NCBI GenBank assembly: GCA_016177765.1
Contig: JACOUP010000008.1
Location: forward strand, 1,025,165-1,089,164
Reading direction: 5' to 3'
Source: Deltaproteobacteria bacterium
GTDB lineage: Bacteria > UBA10199 > JACPAL01 > JACOUP01
DNA: 64,000 nt
Each line of letters starts with the position of its first letter. Within the stretch, counting starts at the first letter, position 1. Positions 1,320 to 46,857 of this stretch are shown piece by piece. The notes beneath the pieces are model-generated. The model did no database searches. It had not been told where the DNA came from and saw nothing but the letters and a program-made list of their open reading frames with translations. The position numbers were made by a program, and so were the translations under genes.

Positions 1320-1347
1320 TTCCTGGCCTGATCTTAAACAGTTGAAG

Positions 1348-1406
1348 CACCCATTGGGTGAATCACCCTTGGGTGAACCACCCCTTGACACGAGGTGTCA
1401 CCCCCC
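1348..1406. repeat. Intergenic cluster of three overlapping copies of the GGGTGAAyCACCC palindrome family
   Basis: gggtgaatcaccc at 1356-1368, gggtgaaccaccc at 1371-1383, ggtgtcacccc at 1394-1404. Confidence 0.7.
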
Positions 1407-1424
1407 GTAAAAGGGCTCGACCTC

Positions 1425-3673
<2,249 letters not shown>

Positions 3674-3708
3674 GGATGGTTCGACTAAGCTCACCATGTC
3701 CGTGAATC

Positions 3709-6839: not shown

Positions 6840-6858
6840 AGAAAAGAAAAATAAGGAA

Positions 6859-6893
6859 GGGGCGGAAGGGGGATCCCGCCCCTTAACTTTTGG
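6859..6893 (+). terminator. Rho-independent terminator after sdhB
   Basis: Stem GGGGCGG / CCGCCCC with a 10-nt loop, followed by TTAACTTTTGG. Confidence 0.55.
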
Positions 6894-6905
6894 TAACTTG
6901 CTCTT

Positions 6906-8063
6906 ATGAAGATTCACGAATACCAGGGTAAAGAGATTTTGAAAAAGTACGGCGTCCCGGTGTCACCGGGCGGCGTCGCCTTTTCCTTGGGTGAGGCGGT
7001 CAAGATTGCCGAAGGTTTGGGGATGCCGGTGGTGGTCAAGGCCCAGATTCATGCTGGTGGCCGAGGCAAAGGGGGCGGGGTCAAGCTGGCCAAGACCCTG
7101 GAGGAGGCGAAGGGATACGCCAAGGCGATTTTAGGGATGAAACTGGTGACTCCCCAGACCGGGCCTGAAGGGAAGATTGTCAAAAAACTCCTGATTGAAA
7201 AGGGGTGCGCGATTGCGCGTGAACTCTACCTCGGTCTGGTGCTGGACAGGACCAACTCCCGCGTTACGATCATGGCCTCCGCCGAAGGGGGGATGGAGAT
7301 TGAAGAGGTTGCCTCCAAACATCCAGAAAAAATTTTTAGGATGCCTGTCGATCCTGTTGTTGGAGTCAATCCCGGCGAGGCGGAAGAGGTCGCTCGCAAA
7401 CTGGGTCTGGATCGAAAACTAACCCCCAAATTTGTCTCTTTCGTGGGGTCTCTCTATGAGTCTTATCTGAAGGCCGATTGTTCGCTCGCTGAGATTAATC
7501 CGTTGGCTGTCACCCAAGAGGGGGATCTGCTGGCGCTCGATGCCAAGATTAATTTCGATGACAACGCCCTCTTCCGTCACCCGGACTATGAGTCCTTGCG
7601 GGACCTGGATGAAGAGGACCCGGCCGAGATAGAGGCCAAAAAACAGGATCTCTCTTACATCAGTCTTTCCGGAAAAATCGGTTGCCTGGTGAATGGGGCG
7701 GGGCTTGCGATGGCAACGATGGATATCATCAAACTCCATGGTGGCGAACCGGCCAACTTTTTGGACGTTGGCGGCGGGGCGACGGAGGAAAAAGTGGCGG
7801 CCGCCTTCAAGATTATTCTGGCCGACCCGAAGGTGAAAGGGGTTTTGGTCAATATCTTTGGCGGGATCATGAAGTGCGATACCATTGCCGGTGGGGTTGT
7901 CGCCGCGGCAAAAGGGGTCACCCTCAGGGTGCCGGTCGTTGTCCGCCTGCAAGGGACCAACGTGGACCAAGGTAAAAAGATTTTGAATGAGTCAGGCCTA
8001 AATCTGATTTCAATTGATAATCTGGATCAGGCGGCGGAGAAAATTGTGAGGTTGGCACAATAG
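6906..8063 (+). CDS. sucC: Succinyl-CoA ligase (ADP-forming) beta subunit
   Basis: [13 protein letters not shown]-terminus, ATP-grasp domain; 385 aa. Confidence 0.92.
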
Positions 8064-8966
8064 ATGTCGATACTCGTCAACAAAAACACGAAGGTCATGA
8101 CCCAGGGGATCACCGGTTCGACCGGACAGTTTCATACGCGGCAGTGCGTTGCCTATGGGACAAAGATGGTGGCCGGGGTGACGCCGGGCAAGGGGGGACA
8201 GGAGTTTGAAGGAATCCCGATCTTTAATTCCGTCAAGGAGGCCTCGATGCAAACCGGGGCGACGGTCTCTGTCGTTTATGTCCCTCCAAAGTTTGCGGCG
8301 GGGGCGATCAAGGAGGCGGTCGATGCCTCCTTGGATCTTGTTGTTTGCATCACCGAGGGGATCCCGATTCTGGACATGGTCTCTGTGAAGAGGCACATGG
8401 AAGGAAAAAAAACGCGTCTCATCGGACCAAACTGTCCCGGGATCATTACACCGGGGGAGTGCAAGATCGGGATCATGCCGGGGTCTATTCACCGGCCGGG
8501 ACGGATCGGGATCGTTTCCCGCTCCGGGACGCTCACCTATGAGGCGGTCGATCAGGTGACCAGGATCGGTTTGGGTCAGTCGACCTGTATCGGGATCGGC
8601 GGCGATCCGGTGAACGGCACCAATTTTGTTGATTGTCTCAAGCTCCTCAATGAAGACCCGGGGACCGACGCGATCGTGATGATCGGTGAGATCGGCGGGA
8701 CCGCGGAAGAAGAGGCGGCCGCCTTTATCAAAAAGAATCTGAAAAAACCGGTTGTCAGTTTCATCGCCGGGATTTCAGCCCCTCCCGGCAAGCGGATGGG
8801 ACATGCCGGGGCGATTATTACCGGCGGGGCCGGTCCCACCGGTAGGACCGGTCCCACCGGTGGCAAGGGAACGGCCAGGGAAAAGATTGCGGCGTTGGAA
8901 TCGGCTGGAGTCAAGGTGGCGCGGGCGGTGACAGAGATTGGGAAAGAATTGAAAGCCATTTTATAG
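8064..8966 (+). CDS. sucD: Succinyl-CoA ligase alpha subunit
   Basis: CoA-binding and phosphohistidine motifs (GHAGAI); contains an in-frame 18-bp tandem duplication at 8830-8861. Confidence 0.92.
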
Positions 8967-8974
8967 GAGGACAA

Positions 8975-9379
8975 ATGTCACTTGAACGTACACTCGCCAT
9001 CATCAAACCGGATGGCGTCCGGAAAAATTTGATCGGCCAGGTCCTGGCCCGCATCGAAAAATCGGGCCTGAAGGTTACGGCCCTCCAGATGCTCAAACTG
9101 GATCAGAAAAAGGCGGAAGGGTTTTATGCGGTTCACAGTAAGAGGCCTTTTTTTCAAAGTCTCATCCGGTTTATGACGTCGGGTCCTGTGGTGGTGGCCT
9201 GTCTGGAAGGAGAAGGAGCGATTAACCATTGGCGCGGCTTGATGGGGGCGACCGATCCCAAGAAGGCGGAGAAGGGGACGATCCGCGCCGATTTTGCCGA
9301 CAACATCGAACAAAATATCGTTCATGGTTCGGATGCGCCGGAAACGGCCAAGGTTGAAGTCGCTTACTTTTTCAAGTGA
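8975..9379 (+). CDS. ndk: Nucleoside diphosphate kinase
   Basis: [10 protein letters not shown] and NIVHGSD active-site motif; 134 aa. Confidence 0.92.
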
Positions 9380-11076
9380 ACCTTCAAAAAAAGAAACAGC
9401 CTCTCTTTCTCCCCAAACTGGTTTCGGCCTTGGGGAATTATTCCGTTTCCCTGTTTTGGGGGGATCTCTCCGCCGGCTTGATCGTCGGGATTGTGGCCCT
9501 TCCCCTGGCGATCGCCTTTGCCATCGCCTCCGGCGTTTCTCCTGACCGCGGTCTCACCACGGCGATTATTGCCGGCTTTTTGATCTCCGTTTTTGGGGGA
9601 TCCCGTGTCCAGATCGGTGGGCCGACCGGGGCCTTTGTGGTGATCGTTTACCAGATTGTCCAGTTCTACGGCGTTGACGGTTTGATGATCGCCACCGTAA
9701 TGGCCGGCGTCATCCTGATCTTAATGGGGTGTCTCCGGATGGGGGCGATTATACGGTTTATCCCGTACCCACTGACGGTCGGTTTTACCTCCGGGATTGC
9801 CGTCGTTATCTTTTCCTCGCAAATCGGCGACTTCTTCGGATTTAAGACCGGAACCCTTCCCGCTGATTTTATGGAAAAATGGCAGGTCTATCTTGAAACA
9901 TTTCGCTCTTTGAATCTGGTAACCCTGTCCCTCTCCCTTTTTTCAATAGCCCTCCTGGTTTTCTGGCCTCGCTTGAACCGGAAGATCCCAATCCCGGGGT
10001 CAATCATCGTCATTCTGGTCGTTACCGCCCTTGTGCAAGTTTTTCACCTTCCGGTGGAGACGATCGGTTCCCGTTTTTCGTCCCTCCCCGCGGCCTTGCC
10101 GTCGCCCCAGTGGCCGGCGTTTTCTTTTGTGCAGATGAAAAACCTGATCGGTCCCGCCTTTACTATCGCCTTGCTGGGGGCGGTCGAATCACTCCTTTCC
10201 GCGACGGTTTCCGATGGGATGATTGAGGGGAGACACCGTTCCAACACCGAGCTGATTGCTCAGGGGGTCGCCAATGTCGTAGTCCCGTTTTTTGGAGGGA
10301 TCCCGGCGACCGGTGCGATTGCGAGGACCGCGACCAACGTCAAAAACGGGGGGCGGACGCCGGTGGCAGGGATGATCCATGCGGCTACCTTGCTTGTGAT
10401 TGTCCTTTTGTTCGGCCACTGGGCCCGTCTGATCCCGCTCTGTGTGTTGGCCGCCATCCTTGTGATTGTTTCTTACCATATGAGTGAGTGGAGGGCGTTC
10501 AAGGCGCTCCTTCGCGGGCCGCGAATGGATCTCGCGGTTTTGCTCACCACATTTCTGCTGACCGTTTTTGTGGACTTAACCGTGGCGGTTGAGGTTGGGA
10601 TGCTCTTGTCCCTGATCCTCTTCATGAAGAGGATGACCGACGTGACCAGTGTTCGGGAAGTCAAAGAGGCGTTGGATGATGACCTTGATGAGACCGATCT
10701 TCGTGAGGCGGAAGATGCCACAAGCCAGCGGACCATCCCTGAAGGGGTCGATGTCTATGAGGCGGAGGGGGCCTTCTTTTTTGGGGTTTCCGAACTCTTT
10801 CGGGACATGATGGAGATTGGCAAGAACCCCTCGCCGGTGATGATCCTGCGGATGCGGCATGTTCTGCTGCTGGATGCGACCGGATTGCGTGCCTTGAAGG
10901 ATTTAAGGAAACAATGCCTCCGTTACAAAGTTCATCTGATCCTCTGCGGGATCCATGCCCAACCGCTGATGGCGATGGAACAGTCCGGGCTTCTGGCCGA
11001 GTTTGGAGAAAAAAATGTGTTGGGAAGCCTCGACGAGGCGCTTGAAGAAGCCTCGAAGGTTTCTTTGATTAAATGA
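9376..11076 (+). CDS. SulP-family anion (sulfate/bicarbonate) permease with C-terminal STAS domain
   Basis: 566 aa, polytopic. The STAS-like C-terminus overlaps the ndk stop by 4 nt. Confidence 0.85.
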
Positions 11077-11760: not shown

Positions 11761-11832
11761 GCGGGAGTAGCTCAGGGGTAGAGCATTAGCTTCCCAAGCT
11801 AAGGGTCGCGGGTTCAAATCCCGTCTCCCGCT
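11761..11832 (+). tRNA. tRNA-Gly (anticodon CCC)
   Basis: Cloverleaf read by eye: acceptor GCGGGAG/CTCCCGC, anticodon loop TTCCCAA, T-loop GGTTCAAAT; no encoded CCA. Confidence 0.85.
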
Positions 11833-11840
11833 TATTTTTT

Positions 11841-12485
11841 CTAGTCAAAAATCCGGCTTGCGATAATCATCGCTAGAACGAACAGCCCGGAGTAAAAAAG
11901 CTCCCTTTTGCCGATCTTCCTCAAATCCACCGGTTTTTCCCTCCGCTCGGCCACTTTCTTCCGGATCGCACCGATCCGCCAGCTGTAGTAGCCGATAAAG
12001 AGCACCCAGAGAATAATCGGTTGAAGACTCCAACGGAGAATGGAGGCATAGGCGGCCGCCGGGACCAGTGTGGAAAGGCCGACCATCGCCGACCACTCGA
12101 CAAAAAAGGTCCGTTCCTTTCTTTGAACGATCGCGACGAGGTGCCCCACGAAGGAGAGAAACGAAACCATCACCAGCGGGAGGAGCCAGAACCACCCGAG
12201 CGGGTAGAACAGGGGGATGGTAACAAGAAAGGTGAAAAGGGAGTAGAGGCAGAACCAGTTTTTCTCACGGGAAAGCGGGATCTGAAGGGACCGGGCGACC
12301 CTCTTTTTTTTGAAATAGATCCCCAAGGGGTAGCGGGCCAGAAAACCGCCGAGTGCGGCGGGAACGAGGAACCAGGGACGAAGTGAAAAATCGGGGGTGG
12401 CGAGCCAACCGATCAGAAAAGCAACGGTCAACATCCCCCAGGCGCCATGTTCATTGGGGAAAAGGATCTTCTTCATCTTCATCAT
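11841..12485 (-). CDS. Hypothetical polytopic membrane protein
   Basis: 214-aa hydrophobic ORF, divergent from aconitase. Confidence 0.5.
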
Positions 12486-12539
12486 CCAACCATTGAAACA
12501 GCCTTGAAATCAAGAATCATTCTGATAGGGTCGGCCGCG

Positions 12540-14831
12540 ATGCCGCCGATTGAAACCACCCAAGAGCTAGTGGCCCAGGCCTATGAGAGGATGGAGAAGA
12601 ACCTTGCAATAGTTCGCAAGCGGCTGGGGCGTCCTTTGAGCCTTGCCGAAAAAATTCTCTACGGTCATCTCGACAATCCGGAAAAAGAGGATTTGATTCC
12701 AGGGAAAAGTTTTCTCTCCCTCCGGCCGGATCGTGTGGCGATGCAGGATGCGACCGCCCAGATGGCGCTTTTGCAATTTATGTCGGCAGGGAGGCTCGAA
12801 ACCGCTGTCCCGACAACGGTCCACTGCGACCACCTGATTCGTGCGCATGCCGGGGCGGCGAGTGATCTCAAAACCGCCCTCACCGAAAACGAAGAAGTCT
12901 ATCATTTTCTCGAAAGTGCGTCTCAAAAACATGGGATCGGTTTTTGGAGGCCGGGATCCGGCATCATCCATCAGGTGGTTTTGGAAAACTACGCCTTTCC
13001 GGGGGGCCTCATGATCGGGACCGATTCCCACACGCCGAATGCGGGTGGGCTCGGAATGATCGCCTGCGGTGTCGGCGGGGCGGATGCGGTCGATGTGATG
13101 GCCGGCTTCCCCTGGGAGGTGCTTGCTCCGAAGAGAGTAGCGGTTCTCCTGACCGGCGAACTGAACGGCTGGACCTCCCCCAAGGATGTCATCCTCAAGG
13201 TCTGCGAAAAATTGACTGTCAAAGGGGGGACGAATAAAATTATTGAGTATATCGGGCTCGGTTGCGAATCGATCAGCTGTACGGGGAAGGGGACGATCAC
13301 CAACATGGGGGCGGAACTGGGGGCGACCACCTCCCTTTTTCCTTTTGACAAACGGATGGCCGACTATTTGAGGGCGACTGAGAGAAAAGAGATTGCGGGA
13401 CTGGCCGAAAAGCGAAAAACTCTCCTCCGGGCCGACCCGGAGGTGGAAAAGGACCCCGGAAAATATTTTGATGAACTGATCGAGATTGATCTGAATCGTC
13501 TGGAACCGCACGTTGTGGGACCCCATACGCCGGATCTGGCAAGACCGATCTCCGCACTGAGAGAGGAGGCCAAGGTCCAGGGGTATCCGTTGGCCCTCCG
13601 CTATTGTCTGATCGGGAGTTGCACCAATTCTTCCTATGAAGATATTGAGCGGTCGGCCGATATCGCCCGTCAGGCCGCGGCTCACGGGGCCAAGGTCAAA
13701 ACCCCCTTGCTGGTTACCCCCGGTTCGGAACAGGTCTTTGAAACGATCAAGCGGGACGGGCAGTTGGCGGCCCTCGAGGCGATTGGTGCGAAGGTCTTGG
13801 CCAATGCCTGCGGTCCCTGCATCGGTCAATGGAAGCGGGAGGATACCCAGGCCGGGGAGAAAAATTCCATTTTAACCTCTTATAATCGTAATTTTCCGAG
13901 ACGGAATGATGGGAATCCCGAAACTAACGCCTTTATCGGTTCCCCGGAACTGGTTGTCGCGATGGCACTCCAGGGGAGCCTTGATTTTAATCCCCTCACG
14001 GACGAATTGACGGCAGGGGCAAAAAAATGGCGGCTGATAGCCCCCGCCAAGGCAGACGATATCCCCAAAAAGGGGTTTGTTCGGGCCAGGTCCGGTTACC
14101 TCGCGCCGGCGAAGAATCCTTCATCAATTGAGGTCAAAATCAGGCCGGGGAGCGAGCGTTTGCAAAAGTTGGAGCCGTTTCCCGCCTGGGATGGGAAGGA
14201 TTTTGAAAAACTGCCGCTTCTTTTCAAGGCGAAGGGGAAATGCACGACGGATCATATCTCTCCGGCGGGGCCCTGGCTCAAATTCCGAGGGCATCTGGAT
14301 AACATCAGCAATAATATGTTTACCGGGGCGATCAGTGCCTTTACCGGCGAGGCGGGGAAGGGAAAAAATCTCCTGACGGGCGAAGGGGGAAAATCGTTTC
14401 CCGAGATTGCGCGCGACTACAAAAAGCGGGGAATCCGCTGGGTGGTGGTGGGGGACGAAAATTACGGGGAGGGGAGTTCCCGCGAACATGCCGCGATGAG
14501 CCCGCGGTTTCTGGGGTGTGCCACTGTCATCACCCGCAGTTTTGCCCGGATTCACGAAACAAACCTCAAAAAACAGGGGGTCCTGCCGCTCACTTTTGCG
14601 AATCCCGGTGATTACGACAAGGTCCAGGAAGAGGATCGGGTGAGTGTTATAGGGCTCTCTCAGTTAAAACCGGCCTGTCTGGTGACTGTTCTGTTGCATC
14701 ACAGGGATGGGAAAGAAGAAAAAATCGCCGCCCATCATTCCCTTTCTTTGGAACAGATCGCCTGGTTCAAGGCCGGTTCCGCTCTCAATCTCATTCGGAG
14801 TCGGCAGGGAGGGTGGTATGGCCGAGAATAA
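12540..14831 (+). CDS. acn: Aconitate hydratase (~760-aa mitochondrial-like type)
   Basis: N-terminus [29 protein letters not shown], Fe-S ligand cysteines, SRN swivel-domain motifs. ATG at 12540 avoids the overlap with the divergent gene. Confidence 0.85.
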
Positions 14832-16170
14832 GGCAAAACTGGAGCGGGTTTTAGGACCCGTCATGCTCTGGGGATTAGGCGTTGGTTACGTCATCTCCGG
14901 CATGTATTTCGGGTGGAACCTCGGGCTCCCCCAAGGGGGGACTTTAGGCCTCGCCATTGCGACGCTTTTTATCACCCTGATGTATGTTACCTTTACCTTC
15001 GGCTATGCGGAACTAGCCTGCGCCATCCCGCGGGCGGGTGGGGCGTTCGATTATGCCAAGAGGGCCTTGGGACCAACTTGGGGTTTCGTCGGCGGTCTGG
15101 CGCAGATCATTGAATTCGTCTTTGCCCCACCGGCGATCGCCGCGGCAATAGGCGCCTATTTTCACCTCTTCTTCCCGCAGATTCCGGTTATCGGGATCGC
15201 CCTTTTTGTCTATCTTGTTTTTACGGCCCTGAACATCTATGGTGTTAAGGCGGCCGCTTCATTTGAATTGTGGATTACGATTTTTGCCGTGATCGAACTT
15301 TTGATTTTCGCCTGTATTACATTACCCCATCTGGAATGGAGTCATCTGACCCAAAACTCCCTGCCATTCGGTTATAAAGGGGTTTTTGCCGCGATCCCGT
15401 TTGCAATCTGGTTTTTTCTGGCGATTGAAGGGGTGGCCAACGTGGCGGAGGAGACGGTGAACCCCCAGAGAAATATTGTGTTAGGGTTCAGTTCGGCGAT
15501 GGGAACGCTTGTTGTCCTTTGTATCCTGACCTTTCTGGGCTCTGTCGGTGTGGGGGGCTGGGAGAGGATCGTTTATGCCGTGCCCGGGGCGATCCCATCG
15601 GCGGGGCCGATCCCATCGGATTCCCCCTTGCCCTTGGCCTTGGCGCAGGTTGTTGGACAAAATCATTTCTTCTATCACTTGCTGATCACGATCGGTCTTT
15701 TCGGTCTGATCGCCTCTTTTCATGGGATCATCCTGGCGGCTGGCCGGGCGACGTTCGAGTTCGGTCGTGTCGGTTATACCTTCCGTTCGCTGGGGGAAAC
15801 CCACCCCCGTTTCAGGACGCCGGCCAAGGCGCTTTTGGCGAATATGGGGGTCGGTATCTTGGCCCTTTTGACGGGAAAAACCGGGGAAATCATCACCCTC
15901 TCCTGTTTCGGGGCGTTGACCCTTTATATTATTTCCATGGTTTCCCTCTTTCAGTTGAGAAAGAGGGAACCCCAGCTCGCGCGTCCCTTCCGGACACCGG
16001 GGTATCCGCTCTTCCCGTTCATTGCTTTTTTGATTGCCTCTGTTTCTCTTTTGGCGATGATCTTCTATAACGTCAAACTGGCGCTGATCTATTTTTCGAT
16101 CATGGGAATTTTGGTCGCCGGTTTTCAGCTTTTTCGAAAAAGCGGCATCCTTGTTGAGGAGAACGGATGA
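14818..16170 (+). CDS. APC-superfamily amino acid / amine permease
   Basis: About 12 predicted TM helices; start MAENKAK overlaps the aconitase stop (translational coupling). Confidence 0.8.
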
Positions 16171-17510
16171 AAACCAAAGAAGAGATTATTCGTGAACTTC
16201 GCGAGTATTCTTCCGGAAAGGTCAAACTGGCCATTGTTGATATCGACGGTGTCTTGAGGGGAAAGGTGATCCATCGGGACAAGGCCCTTTCAATCCTGGA
16301 AAAGAGTTTCGGTTTCTGCGATGTCGTCTTTGGGTGGGACATGCTGGATACCCTCTACGATAACGCCGATTTTACGGGGTGGCATACCGGTTACCCGGAT
16401 GCGAAGGCGAGGATCGATCTTTCGACCTATCGACGGGTCCCGTGGGATCATGAGATCCCATTTTTTCTGGCTGATTTCAGGAATGAGAAAGAGGAAGGGC
16501 TTGAAATCTGTCCCCGCAATCTTTTGAAAAAAATAATCCGGCAGGCGAGTGAGATCGGGTTTTCCCCAGTCTTCTCCCAGGAGTTTGAGTGGTTTAATTT
16601 CAAGTCGGGAGGGGCTGTCGGGGACCCGATCCCGATGACCGGTGGCATGTTTGGGTATTCGGTCCTCCGCGCTTCACAGAGGAGTCCTTTTTATAACGAC
16701 CTCTTTGATTTCATGGGGCGGTTTGGAATCCCGATTGAGGGGCTTCATACCGAGACCGGGCCCGGTGTCTATGAGGCGGCGATCCTTTACAGCGACGCCC
16801 TGGAGGCGGCCGATCGGGCGACCCTCTTCAAGACGGCTGTGAAAGAGATCGGGGCCCGTCACGGGATCACCCCCAGCTTTATGGCCAAGTGGAATGAAAC
16901 CCTCCCCGGTTGCGGCGGCCATCTTCACCAAAGCCTATGGGATGCCAAAAAGACGCAGAATGTTTTTTACGATGCCAGGGATCCGGACAGTATGAGTCCC
17001 TTGATGAAAAATTATCTCGCCGGGCAACTCCATTGCCTTCCTTACCTCATGCCAATGTTTGCCCCGGTCGTGAACAGTTACAAACGGCTTGTCGAAGGGG
17101 CCTGGGCCCCGACGACTGCGACCTGGGGGGTTGATAACCGGACGACCGCCGTTCGTGTCTTGAAAGGTTCCCCCGAGGCAACCCGGATTGAGTTTCGTGT
17201 CGTCGGTTCGGATGTGAACCCCTACCTCGCGATTGCGGCCTGTCTCGCCTCCGGTCTTTATGGGATCAGAAAGAAAATGGCTTTGACCATCCCGAAGACT
17301 GTTGGTAGTGGCTACTCCAACAAAGAGGCGGCGCCTTTGCCGAGGAATCTTCAAGAGGCGACCGTGGCGATGAAGAACTCGGAGATGGCCACCCAACTTT
17401 TTGGGGAAGTCTTTGTGAAACATTTCTGCCAGACCCGCGAGTGGGAGTGGCGGCAGTATTCCAAGGCGGTGACCGATTGGGAACTGAAGAGATACTTCGA
17501 GGTGATCTGA
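16167..17510 (+). CDS. Glutamine synthetase family protein (gamma-glutamyl-amine ligase, PuuA-like)
   Basis: 447 aa with a GS catalytic domain; 4-nt overlap with the permease stop. Confidence 0.8.
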   Translation: MKTKEEIIRELREYSSGKVKLAIVDIDGVLRGKVIHRDKALSILEKSFGFCDVVFGWDMLDTLYDNADFTGWHTGYPDAKARIDLSTYRRVPWDHEIPFFLADFRNEKEEGLEICPRNLLKKIIRQASEIGFSPVFSQEFEWFNFKSGGAVGDPIPMTGGMFGYSVLRASQRSPFYNDLFDFMGRFGIPIEGLHTETGPGVYEAAILYSDALEAADRATLFKTAVKEIGARHGITPSFMAKWNETLPGCGGHLHQSLWDAKKTQNVFYDARDPDSMSPLMKNYLAGQLHCLPYLMPMFAPVVNSYKRLVEGAWAPTTATWGVDNRTTAVRVLKGSPEATRIEFRVVGSDVNPYLAIAACLASGLYGIRKKMALTIPKTVGSGYSNKEAAPLPRNLQEATVAMKNSEMATQLFGEVFVKHFCQTREWEWRQYSKAVTDWELKRYFEVI

Positions 17511-18658
17511 TGGACTGGAACCAACGATACACGTTTAATTTTCCGACCCTCATCCGTTTTGGCAAAGGGGTGATTGAGGAGTTGGGACCGCACTTGAAAG
17601 AAAAGGGGGTTCGTCGTCCCCTCGTCGTGACTGATCCTGGTCTCGCCCTGCTTCCGCTGTTTCAAACAGTTATCGCCTCACTCAAAAAATCCGGTGTTGG
17701 GGTCGAAGTCTATTCCGGCATCCACAAGAACCCGGTCAAGAGCGATGTCCTGGGAGGGGTGGGTCAGTATAAAAAATCGGCTTGTGATGCCATCGTCGGG
17801 ATCGGCGGGGGGGCCTCGCTGGATGTGGCGCGGGCCATCGCCCTCAAGGTCAACCATGCGAGGGACCTTTTTGATTATGAAGACTCGCAAGGGGGAGAGC
17901 GGTTGGTCACCGGAGAGATCCCGTATTTTGTCGCCGTTCCGACGACCAGCGGCACCGGGAGCGAGGTCGGTCGGTCGACCGTCATTTCCGATGATGCCAC
18001 CCACGAGAAAAAGATCCTCTTTTCACCGAAACTGATGGCCAGAATAGTTTTTGCCGATCCGGGGCTCACGATGGAACTTCCCCCCGTCATCACGGCGGCG
18101 ACCGGAATGGATGCCCTGACCCATAACATGGAGTCTTACCTGGCCAGGGGGTTTCATCCAATCTGCGACGGAATCGCCCTGGAGGGGATCCGCCTGATTG
18201 GCGAGAGTTTTGTGAGGACGGTCAACAAGCCGGATCTGGAGTCCCGTAGCAAGATGATGGTGGCGGCTATGATGGGGGCTGTTGCCTTTCAGAAAGGGTT
18301 GGGGGTGGTGCATTCAACGGCCCACCCGCTCTCGACCCTTTTTGACCTCCATCATGGCCTGGCTAATGCCATCATGTTGCGCCATGGTGTTGCCTTCAAT
18401 GCCGATGTTTGTGAGGAGCGTCTGGCCAACATTGCCAAGGTCCTCAATCTTGCCGACCCGGGGAGCCAAACGCTCATCCGATACTTAGGAGAGTTGAACG
18501 AAAAGATTCATCTCCCGCTCCGCCTCTCTTCCCAGAAGGTGGGGGAGAAGGATGTCGGTCCTCTTTCACGGCTCGCTTTTCAGGATGTTTGCCATCAGTG
18601 CAATCCGAAACCGGTGACGGAGTCCGATTTTCAGAAAATCTACCGGGTGGCCCTATGA
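17510..18658 (+). CDS. Iron-containing (group III) alcohol dehydrogenase
   Basis: GGGSxxD and metal-binding His motifs; TGATG overlap with the upstream gene. Confidence 0.8.
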   Translation: MDWNQRYTFNFPTLIRFGKGVIEELGPHLKEKGVRRPLVVTDPGLALLPLFQTVIASLKKSGVGVEVYSGIHKNPVKSDVLGGVGQYKKSACDAIVGIGGGASLDVARAIALKVNHARDLFDYEDSQGGERLVTGEIPYFVAVPTTSGTGSEVGRSTVISDDATHEKKILFSPKLMARIVFADPGLTMELPPVITAATGMDALTHNMESYLARGFHPICDGIALEGIRLIGESFVRTVNKPDLESRSKMMVAAMMGAVAFQKGLGVVHSTAHPLSTLFDLHHGLANAIMLRHGVAFNADVCEERLANIAKVLNLADPGSQTLIRYLGELNEKIHLPLRLSSQKVGEKDVGPLSRLAFQDVCHQCNPKPVTESDFQKIYRVAL

Positions 18659-19425
18659 TTAAAATTGGTGTCTCCGCCTGTTTTCTCTACCCGGATCCCG
18701 GCCGGACGGTCTTCGGCCTGAAGACGCTGACCTATCTTGAAAGCGACATGGCCCGGTATCTCTCCAGACGCGGCATCTTGCCGATCCTGATCCCCAATCT
18801 GGCAGAGGAGAACCTGAAGGAATTTCTGGAGGCGATGGATGGTTTTGTCTTTCAGGGGGGGAGCGATATCGCCCCCCAGTCGTATGGTGAAGAGCCGATC
18901 AGGCAGGGAGGGGCCTCCAAGGGGCGGTGGCCCGGCGACCCGGAGAGAGATGCCTATGAACTGAAAATTTTAGACTATGCCGTCCGCCAGGACAAGCCGG
19001 TTCTGGGGATCTGCCGCGGTTGCCAGTTGATCAACGTCTATTTTGGCGGGACGCTTTATCAGGATATCGCTTCCCAAAAGGAAGGGGCCCTCGTTCATCG
19101 GGATGCGATGCGGTATGACCATGTCCACCACCGGATTGAGTGGAAGCCGGGAGGCCTTTTGGGCAAGGTTTACAAGGAGGACAAGGCGACGGAGGTCAAT
19201 TCGGTCCATCATCAGGGGATCAAGGATCTGGGCAAGGATCTTCTGGTGGAGGCGATCTCCCCGCAGGACCAGCTGGTGGAGGCGGTTTCCTACAAGAAGC
19301 CGGATGAAAAATTGGTGCTTGGCGTCCAGTGGCACCCGGAATTTTCGCATACCCTGAAGGATCAGGTGATCCGGCCGGAGCCTCTCTACGATTATTTTTT
19401 GAAAAAGGTGAAGGGTTCCGCTTAG
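18655..19425 (+). CDS. Class I glutamine amidotransferase-like gamma-glutamyl hydrolase (PuuD family)
   Basis: GICRGCQ nucleophile elbow and a His/Glu pair; ATGA overlap with the ADH stop. Confidence 0.8.
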   Translation: MIKIGVSACFLYPDPGRTVFGLKTLTYLESDMARYLSRRGILPILIPNLAEENLKEFLEAMDGFVFQGGSDIAPQSYGEEPIRQGGASKGRWPGDPERDAYELKILDYAVRQDKPVLGICRGCQLINVYFGGTLYQDIASQKEGALVHRDAMRYDHVHHRIEWKPGGLLGKVYKEDKATEVNSVHHQGIKDLGKDLLVEAISPQDQLVEAVSYKKPDEKLVLGVQWHPEFSHTLKDQVIRPEPLYDYFLKKVKGSA

Positions 19426-19430
19426 CGATC

Positions 19431-20813
19431 ATGAAGGTCTTTAATCCAGCCACAGAAGAGTTGATCCGGGAACTTTCCGAAGATTCCGCTGAAAGTTTGC
19501 GAAAAAAGGAATCAGTTTTACGGAGGGGGTGCTCCACCCAAGGTTTGGAGTCATGGCGGCAGGTTCCTTTGGAGGAGCGTATTCAGCGCCTGGCCCGATT
19601 TTCAGAAAAATTGGAAAAAAATAAAAAGGAACTGGCCCGCATTTTGACTAATGAGATGGGAAAGCCGATCCGGGAGTCTTTGAATGAGATTGCAGGGGCC
19701 AGGAGCCGCATCCAGTTTTTTCTGGACCACTCTGCAGAAATTCTAAAATCCAGGGTGGTGCATGAAGAGCCGGGGATGACCGAATCCCTTGAATTTGAAC
19801 CGTTGGGTGTTATCGCCAACATTTCCGCCTGGAACTATCCGTATCTTGTCGGTGTCAATGTTTTTGTCCCGGCGTTGATCGCCGGGAACGCTGTTCTCTA
19901 CAAGCCCTCTGAGTATGCCACATTAACCGGACTGGAAATCGCCCGGCTTTTGTGGGAATCGGGTGTGCCGGAATCGGCCTTTCAAATTGTGGTTGGAGGG
20001 GCTCCAGTCGGCCAGGCCCTTTTGGATCTCCCTCTGGATGGTTATTTCTTTACCGGTTCTTACCGGACCGGGCGGTTTATTGCCGGTGAAGTGGCGTCAA
20101 AGATGGTCCCCTTCGGGCTGGAGCTTGGCGGGAAGGACCCCCTCTATGTCGCCGAGGATGTCACGGATCTCGCCAAGGTTACCGCCGCGGCGGTCGAAGG
20201 GGTTTTTTACAACAACGGCCAGAGTTGTTGCGCCGTTGAAAGGATCTATGTCCACCAAAAAATTTATGATCGGTTTCTTGAAAATTTTTTAAAAGGGGTT
20301 GGCCGTCTCAAGGTTGGCAATCCGCTCGAGCCGGAGACGACCCAAGGGCCTCTGGCCCGCCCGGCCCATCTCCAGTTTCTCGAAAAACAGGTCCGGGAGG
20401 CGGTCGGCCAGGGGGCGAAGGTTTTGACCGGTGGCCGACGGTGGGGGAAGAAGGGGGGTTTTTTTGAACCGACTGTCTTGACTGAGGTGAATCACAAGAT
20501 GAGCCTCATGAAGGAAGAGACCTTTGGCCCTGTCATCGGGATCCAAAGAGTTTCGGGGGATGAAGAAGCGGTCCAACTCATGAATGATACCGAATATGGC
20601 CTCACCGCCTCCGTTTATTCCGGTAGTGAGGAGAGGGCCAAGAAGATTTTGAGACAGATCAATGCCGGGACCGGTTATTGGAATTGTTGCGATCGGGTTA
20701 GCCCCTACCTCCCGTGGTCCGGGCGGAAAAATTCAGGGATCGGTTCCACACTTTCATTCTTGGGGATACAGGCCTTTGTGAAACCCAAGGCGTACCACCT
20801 ACGTCTGCTCTAA
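19431..20813 (+). CDS. NAD(P)-dependent aldehyde dehydrogenase
   Basis: ALDH motifs ELGGKDP and catalytic Cys in NGQSCCAVE; 460 aa. Confidence 0.85.
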   Translation: MKVFNPATEELIRELSEDSAESLRKKESVLRRGCSTQGLESWRQVPLEERIQRLARFSEKLEKNKKELARILTNEMGKPIRESLNEIAGARSRIQFFLDHSAEILKSRVVHEEPGMTESLEFEPLGVIANISAWNYPYLVGVNVFVPALIAGNAVLYKPSEYATLTGLEIARLLWESGVPESAFQIVVGGAPVGQALLDLPLDGYFFTGSYRTGRFIAGEVASKMVPFGLELGGKDPLYVAEDVTDLAKVTAAAVEGVFYNNGQSCCAVERIYVHQKIYDRFLENFLKGVGRLKVGNPLEPETTQGPLARPAHLQFLEKQVREAVGQGAKVLTGGRRWGKKGGFFEPTVLTEVNHKMSLMKEETFGPVIGIQRVSGDEEAVQLMNDTEYGLTASVYSGSEERAKKILRQINAGTGYWNCCDRVSPYLPWSGRKNSGIGSTLSFLGIQAFVKPKAYHLRLL

Positions 20814-21803
20814 AAAATCCTTTTTATAAATTTTCACACAGGCGAGGAAAATGGCGACGATGATCGGGCCAACGAGCAGTCCCACCGGCCCCAAGGCCTG
20901 CAGGCCGCCGAAGATGGCGAGGAAGATCAAAAACGGGTGGATCCGCGTTTTCCCCTGGATGATGAGCGGCTTGATCAGGTTATCAATTCCCGAGATCAGC
21001 AGAGCCCCGTAGAGTCCGAGGAAAATCCCCATTCCCCACTGCTGGGTGAGAAGGAGATAGACCGTCACCGGGATCCAGATCCCGGCCGCCCCGATGATCG
21101 GGATGAAACTGGTGACGATCGTAGCCACCCCCAGGAGCGCGGCGATCGGGATCTTGGCGATTGTAAAGCCGATGCCGGCCAATATCCCCTGGGAGATGGC
21201 GGTCAGGATGTAGCCGTAAAGGCAGGCGTTCAGGGTGTTGCGGATCTCCCGGGAAAGGTGAGTCTCGTAGGATTCCTTGAGGGGGGAGAGGTGTAGCAAA
21301 TTTTCATAGAGTGCAGGTCCTTCAATAAACAGGAAAAAGACGAGGAGCAGTGTCAGGGCAAAATTGAGCAGGAACTGGGTGGTTTGCATCAGGAGTTTTG
21401 GCGAAAACTGGGAGACAAACTGGGCCCCCTGTTGCACCAGTTGGGGGAGGATCGCCTCCCACGAGATCGGAAGGTTGAACCGGTGGCTGTACTCCTTGAC
21501 GAGGGGGAGCCAGGCCTGCATCGTTTCCGGGAGGAAATGGGCGAGGGCGACCGCCTGTTCAATGACCAGGCTGATCACAAAGGCGACTGGAAAAATCAGG
21601 ACCAGCGCCAGAAACAGGGTGACGACGAATGAAGCGATCCAGCGGTGTCCCCGGAACAGCCGGTTGAGCGAGGCATAGAGCGGCCAGAGGCTGATGACGA
21701 ATGTTGCCGCCAGCAGGATGACGGAGAGAAAAGGGCGAAAGAGCCAGAGGACCGCCAGACAAAGGAAGGCGAGAAGGGTCAGAAACGAGATCCGTTCAGA
21801 CAT
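20799..21803 (-). CDS. AI-2E family (UPF0118) transporter / permease
   Basis: 334-aa polytopic protein with the characteristic TM pattern. Confidence 0.65.
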   Translation of the reverse strand: MSERISFLTLLAFLCLAVLWLFRPFLSVILLAATFVISLWPLYASLNRLFRGHRWIASFVVTLFLALVLIFPVAFVISLVIEQAVALAHFLPETMQAWLPLVKEYSHRFNLPISWEAILPQLVQQGAQFVSQFSPKLLMQTTQFLLNFALTLLLVFFLFIEGPALYENLLHLSPLKESYETHLSREIRNTLNACLYGYILTAISQGILAGIGFTIAKIPIAALLGVATIVTSFIPIIGAAGIWIPVTVYLLLTQQWGMGIFLGLYGALLISGIDNLIKPLIIQGKTRIHPFLIFLAIFGGLQALGPVGLLVGPIIVAIFLACVKIYKKDFLEQT

Positions 21804-21862: not shown

Positions 21863-23860
21863 ATGCCCCAAGAACGGACCTTCTGGCAGAGTTGCAAGCG
21901 GCTCATCCTGGGGAGTGCCAGAAATCCCTACGACCATTCCGTCTTTCACAAGATGTCGCTCATCGCCTTTTTTGCCTGGGTTGGCCTCGGGGCGGACGGC
22001 CTCTCCTCTTCGGCGTACGGTCCCGAAGAGGCCTTCTTGGCCCTGCAAGGGCATCCCCATCTGGGGATTTTCGTCGCCCTTGCCTCGGCTATCACCATCT
22101 TTGTCATCAGCGCCAGTTATTCGCAGATCATCGAACTCTTCCCTTCCGGAGGCGGGGGCTATCTGGTTGCGAGCAAACTGCTCAATCCGACCTTGGGGAT
22201 GGTCTCCGGTTGCGCCCTGCTGATTGACTATGTCCTGACGATCTCGATTTCCGTGGCGAGCGGCGCGGACGCCCTGTTTAGCTTTCTGCCAGCGGCCTGG
22301 TATCCTTTCAAGCTGGAATTCGCCTTGGTTGCCCTTCTTGGAATGACCCTGCTCAATATGCGCGGTATTCGTGAATCGGTGGTGGTTTGGACCCCGATCT
22401 TTCTGATATTTGTCATCACTCATTTTTTTGCCATCGCCTACGCCATTGTGACGCATCTCTTTGATTTTCCCGGTGTCGTGCAGGCGACGGTGGAAACAAT
22501 CCAGAGGGGACAGGCCGAGATCGGCTTTTTGGGAATCCTGTTTCTGGTGATGAGGGCCTATAGCATGGGGGCCGGGACCTTCACCGGTATTGAGGCGGTC
22601 AGTAATGGTCTTCCGATCCTCCGCGAACCGAGGGTCCAGACTGGCAAGAAGACGATGAACTACATGGCGGTTTCACTCGCCCTGACCGTTGTCGGATTGA
22701 TGATTGCTTATCTCCTCTACAGTGTGGCTCCAGAACAGGGCAAGACCTTGAACGCCGTCCTTTTCAACAGGATCTCGGAGGCCTGGGGGGAAGGGATCGG
22801 CCGCACTTTTATTCTGACCGCTCTTGTTTCAGAGGCGTCGATCCTTTTTGTGGCGGCCCAGTCCGGTTTTCTGGATGGCCCGCGGGTTTTGTCCAACATG
22901 GCACTCGATCGCTGGTTTCCAACACGCTTTACGATGCTCTCCGACCGGTTGGTGACGCAAAACGGGATCCTTCTCATGGGGACTTCGGCCCTCGTGACGA
23001 TGGTCTTTACAGGGGGTTCAGTCAGGCTCCTGGTTGTCTTGTACAGTATTAACGTCTTTATTACCTTCGTCCTATCCCAATTGGGGATGGTTCGGCACTG
23101 GTGGCTCTTCCGTTCCAGGGAAAGGGTTTGGAAGAAGAAGATTCTGATTAGTGGTGTTGGGCTCGGGTTGACGGCGTTCATCCTCGTTTCGGTCACCCTG
23201 ATCAAGTTTTATGAAGGGGGCTGGATAACCCTGCTGGTGACGGGGGGATTGGTGACCTTGGTGGTTACTATCCGGCGCCATTATGATCAGGCGGGGAGGA
23301 TGCTCAAGAGGTTGGACAGTCTTGTTGAGGCGGCGGAGGCGACTACCACCAAGACAGACCCGACCCTAGCCCGAAAGAGGTCATCCGGGGAGACCCTCGA
23401 CCCGCAGGCCAAGACCGCCGTATTTCTGGTAAACGGCTTTAACGGACTGGGTCTTCATACCCTCTTTAGCGTGATCCGTCTCTTTGGAGAGGTTTTCAAG
23501 AATTATCTCTTTATCCAGGTGGGTGTCATCGATGCCGGTGTCTTCAAGGGGGAGGCGGAGATTGCCCAATTGGAGGCCAAGGTCAAGAGGGAGACGGAAC
23601 GGTATGTCGCCTTCATGAAGCGGCACGGATACAACGCGGAGGCGGTTTCGTCTCTGGGGACCGATGTGGTGGAACAGGTTGCCGGTCTGATGCCAAAGGT
23701 CATGGAGCGTTTTCCGGAGGCGGTCATCTTTGGGGGGCAGTTGGTCTTCCCGCACGATTCCTTCTTTTCCCGCTGGCTCCACAACTACACGATCTTTGCG
23801 GTCCAGCGACGGTTCTATAATCAGGGGATTCCGGTCGTGATCCTGCCGATTAGATTATAA
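21863..23860 (+). CDS. APC-family transporter with ~200-aa C-terminal cytoplasmic domain
   Basis: 12 TM N-terminal part plus a soluble tail. True start may be the later Met at 21953. Confidence 0.6.
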   Translation: MPQERTFWQSCKRLILGSARNPYDHSVFHKMSLIAFFAWVGLGADGLSSSAYGPEEAFLALQGHPHLGIFVALASAITIFVISASYSQIIELFPSGGGGYLVASKLLNPTLGMVSGCALLIDYVLTISISVASGADALFSFLPAAWYPFKLEFALVALLGMTLLNMRGIRESVVVWTPIFLIFVITHFFAIAYAIVTHLFDFPGVVQATVETIQRGQAEIGFLGILFLVMRAYSMGAGTFTGIEAVSNGLPILREPRVQTGKKTMNYMAVSLALTVVGLMIAYLLYSVAPEQGKTLNAVLFNRISEAWGEGIGRTFILTALVSEASILFVAAQSGFLDGPRVLSNMALDRWFPTRFTMLSDRLVTQNGILLMGTSALVTMVFTGGSVRLLVVLYSINVFITFVLSQLGMVRHWWLFRSRERVWKKKILISGVGLGLTAFILVSVTLIKFYEGGWITLLVTGGLVTLVVTIRRHYDQAGRMLKRLDSLVEAAEATTTKTDPTLARKRSSGETLDPQAKTAVFLVNGFNGLGLHTLFSVIRLFGEVFKNYLFIQVGVIDAGVFKGEAEIAQLEAKVKRETERYVAFMKRHGYNAEAVSSLGTDVVEQVAGLMPKVMERFPEAVIFGGQLVFPHDSFFSRWLHNYTIFAVQRRFYNQGIPVVILPIRL

Positions 23861-24016: not shown

Positions 24017-26101
24017 TTATCGTTTTCTCATCCTGCGGACTAGGGCAAGGCCCATACCGATCAGGATCATCCCGAAGCCCTGCATTCCAGGAGCGGCACT
24101 CCCGCCGATCGTGCAACCACAACCGCTATCCGCGGTCAGGGCTGGCAGACCGTCGCAGACGTCGCCGATCCCGTTCCCGTTGGCATCCGCCTGATCCGGA
24201 TTGGCGATGTTGCAGTTATCCGGTCCCTCCGTGCAGAGTCCTTCAATCGGGTCAACGCCGTCGCAGATGCCGTCGCCGTCGATATCCCCTTCACAGGCAT
24301 CGCCCAACCCTTCAATCCCGCCGGTATCCTCCTGCCCCTCGTTCTTGACGATGCGGCAGTTGTCCGGTCCCGTTTTACAGACGTTCGGGATCTCGGCCCC
24401 GCCGTCGCAGACCGCATCCAGATCGCAGTCGGAATTCAGGGCGCAGAGTCTTGGGTACAACGGAGAGGTGCACTCTTCATAATCATCCAGTCCGTCGCCG
24501 TCGGTATCGACCTTGTTCTTGTCGGTCCCGCAGAGGTCTTCATCAAAGTCGGTCAGGCCGTCGTTATCCAGGTCGGAAAGAGAAGTCGCCTGCACGCAGG
24601 CATCGCCGACGCCGTTTCCGTCCGTATCGGTCTGGTCCGGGTTCGGGACGTTGATACAGTTGTCCTGCCCGTTGTTCAAGCCGTCACCATCCGAGTCACA
24701 GGTCTCATCGTTCGGGAGACAGGCTGGGGCCCCGTTGCCCCCTCCACCACCGCCCCCCCCGGTGACAGCGATCGCCACAGGGAATGACTGGATATGGGAG
24801 ACGCCGTTGTCATCCTTCGTTTCGCACTCAATCGCCTGGTCTCCACCCGGTGTTGGGGCAAAACTGGTTTCAAAGATAATCGAACAGGTATCATCAGCCT
24901 GATTGGGGCAGACCGCCTCAACCGCTGTTGCCGAGCCGCCGCTTACCTTGATGCTGGAGGCAAACTGGGCGGTATAGGTGGCGCTGACAGCAATCCCTGT
25001 CTCTGTCGTGGTCACCGTCGGGGCACTGGAGACACAGTTCGGCACGTTGCTGCCACCCGGGTTAGTCCCTGTCGGGCAACCAGGTCGTGCTGGATCCGGT
25101 GTTGCTCCGGCCGCTTCGGCGGGGCATTGGTCTTCACAGTTCTTGACGCCGTCCCCATCGGTATCCCCCTGGTCGGCATCATCGGCCGCACAGCCGGTCC
25201 CGGGGGCCGCTATCGGGCAACCGGTCGCCGGATCAATCCGTTCCGTCGGGTTGGAACCGGGGCACTGGTCTACAGAATCCTCAACCCCATCTCCATCCGC
25301 ATCCGCAACACCTTCTTGCATAATAACAACGGAGGGGTCTAAAAACATCTTGGCACTCGTATATGGATTTCTTAAGCTGTCTACCGCCTGGGGTGCACCA
25401 TCCACGCAAACGATATGGTCTTTGACCCCATCTCCCTCTGGGACAAGAATCGTGAGGTAGGCCAAAGTATGGTAGTTTGAAGCCTCCCCCCGGATGTCAA
25501 AGACGCAACCCTCTGGGTTGGCGGTCAGGTACTCCATGGCATCAATCGTTGTCTTGGAGAGGAAACCGGAGATTGTCAACCCCGCTTTGGCGGTCCGACG
25601 ACAGTCCGCTGAAACACAGATATCATCCCCGACATTCTCCCCACTAATCACAAACGGTTCCGTAACAGTGACGGTGATCTCCTCATCCGTACAGTTGGGT
25701 GGAGTCCCGCCGGCCAATTCATCACGGGTAACAGTGTTTGGCTTTGTATCAAAAAAGACAACCGGCTTGACCGTGGTCAAGTCGGTATCTCCCTCAAAAC
25801 AATAGGTCTGGTTGTTGAAGTAGCCGATCGCTGTGGCCAGGTGATCCCCGTCAATGGCGCAGACATCCCTGGGGCCGCCGTCTTCACCGTCTCTGAAGAT
25901 GTTGGTTGCCCCATCGGCGCATTCGCCCTCTTCCAAGAAGGAGCTTACCTTTCCGACCGAGCTGAACTTCCCAATAAAGGAGTAGAGGCGGTTGAGAGGG
26001 GCCTTGATGAGATTAAACTCGAAGGCGTTCGCCTCTGGTTGCCCGATTAGTCCCAGCAGGATTGCCGAGATCATAATGACGCTAGATCGTTTAAGCTTCA
26101 T
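24017..26101 (-). CDS. Secreted calcium-binding thrombospondin type 3 repeat protein with C-terminal GCGC/TM/basic sorting tail
   Basis: Signal peptide MKLKRSSVIMISAILLGLIGQPEANA; multiple DxDxDGxxDxxD motifs; Gly8 run; C-terminus ...SGCGCTIGG...LIGMGLALVRRMRKR. Confidence 0.75.
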   Translation of the reverse strand: MKLKRSSVIMISAILLGLIGQPEANAFEFNLIKAPLNRLYSFIGKFSSVGKVSSFLEEGECADGATNIFRDGEDGGPRDVCAIDGDHLATAIGYFNNQTYCFEGDTDLTTVKPVVFFDTKPNTVTRDELAGGTPPNCTDEEITVTVTEPFVISGENVGDDICVSADCRRTAKAGLTISGFLSKTTIDAMEYLTANPEGCVFDIRGEASNYHTLAYLTILVPEGDGVKDHIVCVDGAPQAVDSLRNPYTSAKMFLDPSVVIMQEGVADADGDGVEDSVDQCPGSNPTERIDPATGCPIAAPGTGCAADDADQGDTDGDGVKNCEDQCPAEAAGATPDPARPGCPTGTNPGGSNVPNCVSSAPTVTTTETGIAVSATYTAQFASSIKVSGGSATAVEAVCPNQADDTCSIIFETSFAPTPGGDQAIECETKDDNGVSHIQSFPVAIAVTGGGGGGGGNGAPACLPNDETCDSDGDGLNNGQDNCINVPNPDQTDTDGNGVGDACVQATSLSDLDNDGLTDFDEDLCGTDKNKVDTDGDGLDDYEECTSPLYPRLCALNSDCDLDAVCDGGAEIPNVCKTGPDNCRIVKNEGQEDTGGIEGLGDACEGDIDGDGICDGVDPIEGLCTEGPDNCNIANPDQADANGNGIGDVCDGLPALTADSGCGCTIGGSAAPGMQGFGMILIGMGLALVRRMRKR

Positions 26102-26350
26102 GGTAGACTCCTTTGACAATGAATAGTTCATTGCTCTAACAGGATTATCGGAAAGGGCAGGGGAAGGTTGCTAAAAAAATTAAAGGACGAAGGCCGGATC
26201 GGCAGGGTCCTCTCCAGGACCTATTTAAGATGTATATAAAGGAGGGGGGGACATTTCTCCTAAAAACTAAAATTATTAGCAACTATGGTCCGGGGGGAAC
26301 GATAATAGGCATGAAACGGTTAAGCGGTCTTACTCTATAAGGAGGCAGTT

Positions 26351-46771: not shown

Positions 46772-46786
46772 GGTATTTGTTTTATG

Positions 46787-46857
46787 CTCGGGGACTAGGA
46801 TTCGAACCTAGATTTACGGAGTCAGAGTCCGCAGTCCTGCCGTTAGACGATCCCCGA
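46787..46857 (-). tRNA. tRNA-Gln (anticodon CTG)
   Basis: Reverse complement folds as acceptor TCGGGGA/TCCCCGA, anticodon loop CTCTGAC, T-loop GGTTCGAATCC, discriminator G. Resembles E. coli tRNA-Gln. Confidence 0.75.

Follow-up and report, generated by a model that had tools for sequence, protein, structure and literature searches.

The operon and its products

We examined a 64,000-nt stretch of DNA from a metagenome-assembled genome (MAG) of a Deltaproteobacteria bacterium (contig JACOUP010000008.1 of assembly GCA_016177765.1), referred to below as the window, and focused on a run of five genes that may encode the uptake and degradation of an amino alcohol. The five genes are co-directional, occupy positions 14818–20813 of the (+) strand, and encode an Eat-type permease, a glutamine synthetase (GS)-like ligase, an iron-containing alcohol dehydrogenase (Fe-ADH), a C26-type hydrolase and an aldehyde dehydrogenase (ALDH). 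When the aconitase gene that precedes them is counted, six co-directional open reading frames (ORFs) lie at 12.4–20.8 kb. Families were assigned with Pfam, equivalog calls were made at the curated cut-offs of NCBIfam, and gene junctions were read directly from the DNA letters. The features are as follows.

14818..16170, + strand: Eat-family (APC superfamily) ethanolamine permease, 450 aa (Pfam AA_permease, AA_permease_2; TIGR00908)
16167..17510, + strand: GS-like ATP-dependent gamma-glutamyl-amine ligase, predicted gamma-glutamylethanolamide synthetase, 447 aa (Pfam Gln-synt_C)
17510..18658, + strand: iron-containing NAD(P)-dependent alcohol dehydrogenase, predicted gamma-glutamylethanolamide dehydrogenase, 382 aa (Pfam Fe-ADH and ADH_Fe_C)
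18655..19425, + strand: Peptidase C26 / class-I amidotransferase-type gamma-glutamyl hydrolase, predicted gamma-glutamylglycine hydrolase, 256 aa (Pfam Peptidase_C26/GATase)
19431..20813, + strand: aldehyde dehydrogenase, predicted gamma-glutamyl-aminoacetaldehyde dehydrogenase yielding gamma-Glu-Gly, 460 aa (Pfam Aldedh)
12540..14831, + strand: aconitate hydratase (mitochondrial-type), 763 aa (TIGR01340); context, outside the conserved cassette

An earlier note on this DNA had described a tightly coupled operon with overlaps of 1–4 nt throughout. Its coordinates, gene order, families and tight coupling were borne out by the ORFs, the Pfam assignments and the reading of the junctions, and such overlaps were found at three of the four internal junctions: permease/ligase (ATGA, 4 nt), ligase/ADH (TGATG, 1 nt) and ADH/hydrolase (ATGA, 4 nt). 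The fourth is a gap, with a spacer of 5 nt between the hydrolase stop codon (TAG, 19423–19425) and the ALDH start (ATG, 19431), a start on which independent gene calls agree. Those calls, made on identical contigs in other assemblies, also matched all six product lengths (763, 450, 447, 382, 256 and 460 aa in gene order). As the note had stated, the permease gene begins before the aconitase gene has ended; the two share 14 nt (ATG at 14818, TAA at 14829–14831), and a GGAGGG motif lies 5 nt ahead of the permease ATG. At the other end, a convergent gene for an AI-2E-family transporter, 20799–21803 (-), overlaps the 3′ end of the ALDH gene by 15 nt, and the operon thus ends at 20813.

Of the five products, the permease is the strongest pointer to the substrate. 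It reaches 443.2 bits on the 'ethanolamine permease' equivalog TIGR00908 (cut-off 381.75), which seven other permeases from related cassettes also pass (422–446 bits), and it is only 24% identical to the putrescine importer PuuP. Three plasmid or chromosome records, unrelated to one another and from Klebsiella, Methylobacterium and Thioclava, carry homologues with 43–46% identity that are annotated eat and adjoin eutB and eutC. Eat has been described as the ethanolamine importer of the short eut locus of Klebsiella, a locus that responds to ethanolamine (PMC11101070).

The ligase retains every metal, ATP and glutamate ligand of E. coli GlnA (E129, E131, E212, E220, H269, H271, R321, R339, R344, E357 and R359). 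Three other positions are altered in GlnA numbering, namely the flap residue E327 (to W), N264 (to P) and Y179 (to F), and all three substitutions are invariant among 27 family members. The flap glutamate closes the ammonium site of GS; its position is occupied by Tyr in PuuA and by Phe in Csal_0679. The positions of GlnA Asp50 and Ser53 were not interpreted, alignment of the N-terminal domain being unreliable. Scores fell well short of the cut-offs for type I GS (TIGR00653, 210 against 429), type III GS (TIGR03105, 229 against 470) and gamma-glutamylputrescine synthetase (199 against 650). Because of these scores and the substitutions at the flap and ammonium site, the protein is, to judge by its sequence, distinct from both true GS and PuuA, and it looks like an active gamma-glutamyl ligase.

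Among solved structures, the best relatives by sequence were PDB entries 11zs from Brucella (263 bits) and 5dm3 (239 bits), which is Csal_0679 according to its PDB title; genuine GS reached at most 178 bits, arylamine GS 157 and GmaS 150. The window ligase shares 34–37% identity with the Csal clade and 31% with PuuA. Among the references compared, the ligase family of the window and the Csal/Brucella clade are mutually nearest, with 243–278 bits versus 174–197 to PuuA and 87–100 to GlnA. A fold search with a model of the ligase (mean predicted local distance difference test score, pLDDT, 74.6) returned the GS fold and confirmed 11zs and 5dm3, without discriminating between specificities. Entry 11zs is a 2026 cryo-EM structure titled 'glutamine synthetase from Brucella melitensis'; it is 55% identical to Csal_0679 and may be an ethanolamine-type gamma-glutamyl ligase, not a true GS.

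The two dehydrogenases were compared with those of the reference ethanolamine cluster. Over its full length the Fe-ADH shares 37% identity with that of the cluster in Nioella, and in that alignment the metal ligands D201, H205, H268 and H282 are present at canonical spacing together with a GGGxxxD motif. It reaches no NCBIfam equivalog, the best being 4-hydroxybutyrate dehydrogenase (323 bits, cut-off 500). The ALDH is 37% identical to its counterpart in the reference cluster and 33% identical to PuuC, with which the catalytic residues Glu231 and Cys266 align. It likewise reaches no equivalog, scoring 248 against a cut-off of 850 for PuuC. The hydrolase is 37% identical to E. coli PuuD, and its triad Cys120/His227/Glu229 aligns with PuuD Cys114/His222/Glu224; its score of 96.5 lies under the PuuD equivalog cut-off of 266.

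Conservation and relation to known systems

A search of 5.8 billion proteins with the ligase returned hundreds of relatives at 60–75% identity, mostly from Bacteroidota. Using one genome per species and two clade-specific motifs, EGAWAPTT and [LI]HTETGPGV, we confirmed at least 595 relatives of the ligase clade. Loci were examined for the best 80 of these relatives, almost all of which come from Bacteroidota. They were compared by tblastn with the window proteins and, independently, by all-against-all clustering of the ORFs in 85 loci. The genes for permease, ligase, Fe-ADH, C26 hydrolase and ALDH retain this order and a common strand in 44 of the 60 loci with enough flanking DNA, nearly all of them from Bacteroidota; in total there are 50 complete copies, whose median span is 6.0 kb. 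Cultured carriers include Pedobacter, Chitinophaga, Cyclobacterium, Maribacter, Sphingobacterium and Olivibacter, and examples at species level are Pedobacter soli DSM 18609, Chitinophaga niastensis DSM 24859 and Cyclobacterium xiamenense. Since the same five genes recur in this order and orientation in so many loci, the arrangement is far beyond chance. ORF clustering in the 85 loci yielded just the five cassette genes and their antisense shadow ORFs, and no other recurrent neighbour was seen, whether regulator, oxidase, aminotransferase or a gene of glycine metabolism or glycine cleavage. Because order and strand are conserved and nothing else recurs, the cassette is a portable five-gene unit.

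Several features of the related loci were recorded alongside. The C26 hydrolase exists in two divergent forms, one 49–69% identical to the window protein (loci L009, L013–L015, L018, L057, L059 and others) and one only 30–40% identical, found mainly in Chitinophagaceae and Pedobacter (L002, L012, L024, L027, L060 and L070); the remaining four genes are 52–81% identical to those of the window. In two Chitinophagales loci (L003 and L004, 8653–14039) a gene of the Na+/H+-antiporter family (PF03553) stands between the ligase and Fe-ADH genes, and no C26 or ALDH gene is nearby. The permease-less loci L006 and L064 were inspected for an alternative TRAP transporter, which would tie the ligase clade to EtoX, and none was found; the related loci as a whole showed no recurrent TRAP genes either. 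In a search for a conserved upstream operator the top 8-mers were AT-rich and present in at most 13 of 68 cassette loci, and no convincing motif emerged.

The logic of the pathway to which these genes point is not new and has been described from 2015 onwards. For Chromohalobacter salexigens and Agrobacterium tumefaciens, Vetting et al. (2015, Biochemistry 54:909) put forward and supported the use of ethanolamine by gamma-glutamylation, as cited in PMC10132767, which treats the route as demonstrated; the pathway has also been described in Phaeobacter MED193, where the operon is induced by phosphatidylethanolamine (PMC10132767). A homology search with the 5dm3 sequence located the Chromohalobacter locus (L086), which contains genes for an RpiR regulator and an FGase followed by DctQ, DctM, DctP, the GS-like ligase, ALDH and Fe-ADH, and the Nioella reference locus (L087) has the same layout. 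The Chromohalobacter/Phaeobacter system and the cassette share their chemical logic, the families of the ligase, Fe-ADH and ALDH, and the proposed end products glycine and glutamate; in the window as in both reference loci, Fe-ADH and ALDH are encoded near the ligase. Identities between the window and the reference cluster are 34% for the ligase and 37% for both Fe-ADH and ALDH. The two systems differ in the parts that surround this core. Uptake in the Chromohalobacter system is by a TRAP transporter (DctPQM, with the ethanolamine-binding DctP EtoX/Csal_0678), whereas the window encodes a non-orthologous Eat APC permease. The hydrolase is likewise non-orthologous, belonging to the FGase family (PF05013) in the Chromohalobacter and Nioella loci and to Peptidase_C26 in the window, and PF05013 was found in the reference loci only. 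The RpiR regulator is absent from the window cassette, and gene order differs. Between ligase and ALDH the reference clusters also carry a small ORF with no counterpart in the window, SnoaL-like in Nioella (10367–10771) and with no Pfam match in Chromohalobacter (10405–10611).

A second precedent is the GlnA4 (SCO1613) cluster of Streptomyces coelicolor, SCO1610–1615, with which the cassette shares a GS-like gamma-glutamylethanolamide synthetase, a dehydrogenase, an ALDH and a hydrolase of the 'glutamine amidotransferase' type (PMC6529630). Biochemical and genetic work on GlnA4 established the initial reaction, and the later ones, in which a dehydrogenase, an aldehyde dehydrogenase and a gamma-glutamylglycine amidohydrolase lead to glycine and glutamate, were deduced (PMC6529630, PMC9397018). 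The alcohol dehydrogenase of the Streptomyces cluster is a short-chain dehydrogenase, in contrast to the Fe-ADH of the window, and the cluster has a dedicated repressor, EpuRI, whereas the window cassette has no regulator (PMC6529630). In other Streptomyces species the GlnA4-type cluster also holds a permease, reported to be dissimilar to Eat (PMC6529630), while that of the window belongs to the Eat family.

Three further systems have features in common with the cassette or were proposed as analogues. The E. coli Puu pathway also masks an amine by gamma-glutamylation, and its ligase, ALDH and C26 hydrolase are 31%, 33% and 37% identical to those of the cassette, in which no gene attains a Puu equivalog cut-off. 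Puu generates its aldehyde from a second amine through the FAD oxidase PuuB; the cassette has no oxidase and instead has an NAD-dependent Fe-ADH for a hydroxyl. With the short eut locus eat-eutBC of Klebsiella, Pseudomonas and others, the cassette shares the Eat-family importer (43–46% identity) and the presumed substrate, whereas the chemistry of that locus is a B12-dependent ethanolamine ammonia-lyase reaction to acetaldehyde and ammonia, and the window cassette contains no eutBC. An analogy to the Ipu isopropylamine/alaninol pathway, drawn in the earlier note, holds only loosely: Ipu as described includes a monooxygenase step on the gamma-glutamyl amide, and neither the cassette genes nor their recurrent neighbours encode a P450 or any other oxygenase. 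Precedents exist for every component of the cassette, so its novelty is one of architecture within a known pathway and it does not represent a novel class of system. A search of one literature library found no paper on the Bacteroidota-type Eat/C26 cassette or its wide distribution.

Proposed pathway and alternatives

Based on these comparisons, we consider it likely that the operon serves the import of ethanolamine and its catabolism, with nitrogen assimilation, to glycine through gamma-glutamylated intermediates. The earlier note had proposed a gamma-glutamylation operon with an alcohol dehydrogenase in the place of the Puu amine oxidase, and had suggested from this that the substrate carries a hydroxyl. 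This reading is supported by a cassette lacking both oxidase and aminotransferase, by a ligase that is not a true GS, and by the published ethanolamine cluster of Chromohalobacter, which likewise combines a GS-like ligase with an ALDH and an Fe-ADH (PMC10132767; PMC6529630). Among the candidates then listed, which also included 3-aminopropanol and 4-aminobutanol, ethanolamine is favored by the TIGR00908 score of 443 bits and by the eutBC-linked homologues.

From homology and gene context we infer the mechanism, including the substrate of each enzyme. Ethanolamine would enter through the Eat-type permease, and the GS-like ligase would use ATP to join it to the gamma-carboxyl of glutamate, giving gamma-glutamylethanolamide. 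The Fe-ADH would then oxidize the free hydroxyl to the aldehyde, gamma-Glu-aminoacetaldehyde, which the ALDH would convert to gamma-glutamylglycine, and the C26 hydrolase would free glycine and regenerate glutamate. The predicted net reaction is ethanolamine + ATP + 2 NAD(P)+ -> glycine + ADP + Pi + 2 NAD(P)H. Such a route would need neither B12 nor a microcompartment and would make no free aldehyde. The presence of an ALDH means that the substrate should be a primary alcohol, and ethanolamine is favored among the amino alcohols because the permease is of the Eat family and its homologues adjoin eutBC. Glycine also fits better as a product than beta-alanine or gamma-aminobutyric acid (GABA), since the cassette has no follow-on enzyme and glycine is handled by housekeeping metabolism.

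Several observations weigh against ethanolamine as the substrate. The ligase is only 34–37% identical to the Csal_0679 clade and forms a clade of its own, and its amine pocket reads W/P/F at GlnA positions 327/264/179 versus F/A/E in Csal_0679, so that specificity is not transferable by residue identity; the references with which it was compared included the Csal/Brucella clade, PuuA and GlnA. In NCBIfam the ADH and ALDH come closest to 4-hydroxybutyrate dehydrogenase and succinate-semialdehyde dehydrogenase, both well below cut-off, and such enzymes would suit a C4 amino alcohol too. The cassette permeases, moreover, are a divergent Eat subgroup, scoring 422–446 bits on TIGR00908 as against 609 for an eutBC-linked Eat. 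The enzyme roles within this ligase clade are predictions. The distinct ligase clade and pocket and the sub-threshold C4-enzyme matches of the ADH and ALDH contribute to the residual doubt.

The same points lend themselves to an alternative with identical logic and another primary amino alcohol as substrate, such as 3-aminopropanol (leading to beta-alanine), 4-aminobutanol (to GABA), N-methylethanolamine (to sarcosine) or L-alaninol, or to a broadly specific ligase. Besides the separate ligase clade, its altered pocket and the two C4-type dehydrogenase matches, the hydrolase has its best, again sub-threshold, match in PuuD, which acts on gamma-Glu-GABA. We regard this alternative as unlikely: all of the NCBIfam matches that would support it are far under their cut-offs, whereas every cassette permease scored, that of the window included, exceeds the cut-off of the ethanolamine-permease equivalog. 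An enzyme such as an aminotransferase, which would carry beta-alanine or GABA further, is also missing from the cassette, while glycine enters housekeeping metabolism directly. Among natural amino alcohols, moreover, ethanolamine greatly exceeds all others in abundance.

Two other explanations depart further from ethanolamine catabolism. The GS-like ligase, C26 hydrolase and ALDH all belong to Puu families (31% identity to PuuA, 37% to PuuD and 33% to PuuC), as would be expected if the operon gamma-glutamylated a polyamine such as putrescine or cadaverine, with the Fe-ADH an unrelated passenger and the oxidase encoded elsewhere. This is very improbable given that about 50 complete copies of the cassette contain no PuuB-type oxidase and keep the Fe-ADH inside, between ligase and hydrolase; the equivalog scores (199 versus 650, 96.5 versus 266 and 248 versus 850) and an Eat-family permease with 24% identity to PuuP point the same way. 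Least credible of all is that the genes are unrelated neighbors, the GS paralogue assimilating ammonia and the ADH and ALDH oxidizing alcohols with no joint pathway. It would agree with the failure to find a dedicated regulator by ORF clustering or a riboswitch with Rfam. Against it stand the order and orientation kept in 44 of 60 loci from Bacteroidota and other lineages, start/stop overlaps that imply translational coupling, a ligase devoid of the ammonia-flap Glu327, and the co-occurrence of the same enzyme families in an experimentally supported pathway (PMC10132767).

If the operon does act on ethanolamine, its interest lies in the supply of that compound, which any turnover of phosphatidylethanolamine membranes sets free. 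The standard eutBC route depends on B12 and often on a microcompartment, and gamma-glutamylation would offer a cheap, cofactor-light alternative that yields glycine. With at least 595 ligase relatives, and with the cassette present in most of the best-80 loci that have enough flanking DNA, this cassette may account for a large share of the ethanolamine that Bacteroidota turn over in the environment. A bolder proposal, which we hold to be unlikely, is that the cassette was separately assembled and is the principal B12-independent ethanolamine-to-glycine route of Bacteroidota, or that its distinct pocket marks another amino-alcohol specificity, with expression perhaps coupled to aconitase in this MAG lineage. 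Current annotations use labels such as 'glutamine synthetase family protein' and 'iron-containing alcohol dehydrogenase', and the practical value of the present assignment would be better functional annotation and a testable prediction; it brings no new principle.

Aconitase and the surrounding region

The aconitase upstream of the cassette is genuinely of the mitochondrial type, with 1085 bits on TIGR01340 against a cut-off of 825. Its start is probably the ATG at 12540, which gives the 763 aa of the independent calls; the start of the listed ORF, 12447, runs into a divergent YwiC-like gene at 11841–12485 (-). The 55-nt gap upstream of aconitase contains a weak sigma-70-like match, TTGAAA-16-AATCAT (12493–12520), and no other match was found in a promoter and terminator scan, which is uninformative on an internal promoter. 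The scan detected no terminator between aconitase and permease and none after the ALDH. Read-through transcription from aconitase into the permease gene is plausible because no terminator-like site separates the two, and the cassette may be co-transcribed with aconitase.

The earlier note had taken the overlap of permease and aconitase to tie the operon to the tricarboxylic acid (TCA) cycle locus. The physical overlap is real and TCA genes are nearby, but aconitase adjoins the cassette only in this MAG and one sister MAG (L001, with proteins 75–84% identical), and the remaining related loci lack it at this place. With adjacency so limited, the aconitase link is lineage-specific, local synteny, and functional coupling is not supported. 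The AI-2E-family transporter gene adjoins the cassette in the sister MAG too.

The TCA genes are co-directional, span 180–8966 of the window, and encode citrate synthase, isocitrate dehydrogenase, malate dehydrogenase, an SdhC-like protein, SdhA, SdhB, SucC and SucD; a SulP/STAS transporter gene (9376–11076) follows them. Rfam matches in the window comprised two tRNAs and nothing else, namely tRNA-Gly(CCC) at 11761–11832, just upstream of the block formed by YwiC, aconitase and the cassette, and tRNA-Gln(CTG) at 46786–46857. Beyond the AI-2E-family gene, 21863–23860 (+) encodes a 665-aa APC-superfamily protein that matches AA_permease_2 only weakly and is assigned to no NCBIfam family. It is followed at 24017–26131 (-) by a gene for a 704-aa protein whose sole match is to the thrombospondin type-3 repeat; the gene lies in the only stretch that combines raised GC content (0.587) with negative GC skew.

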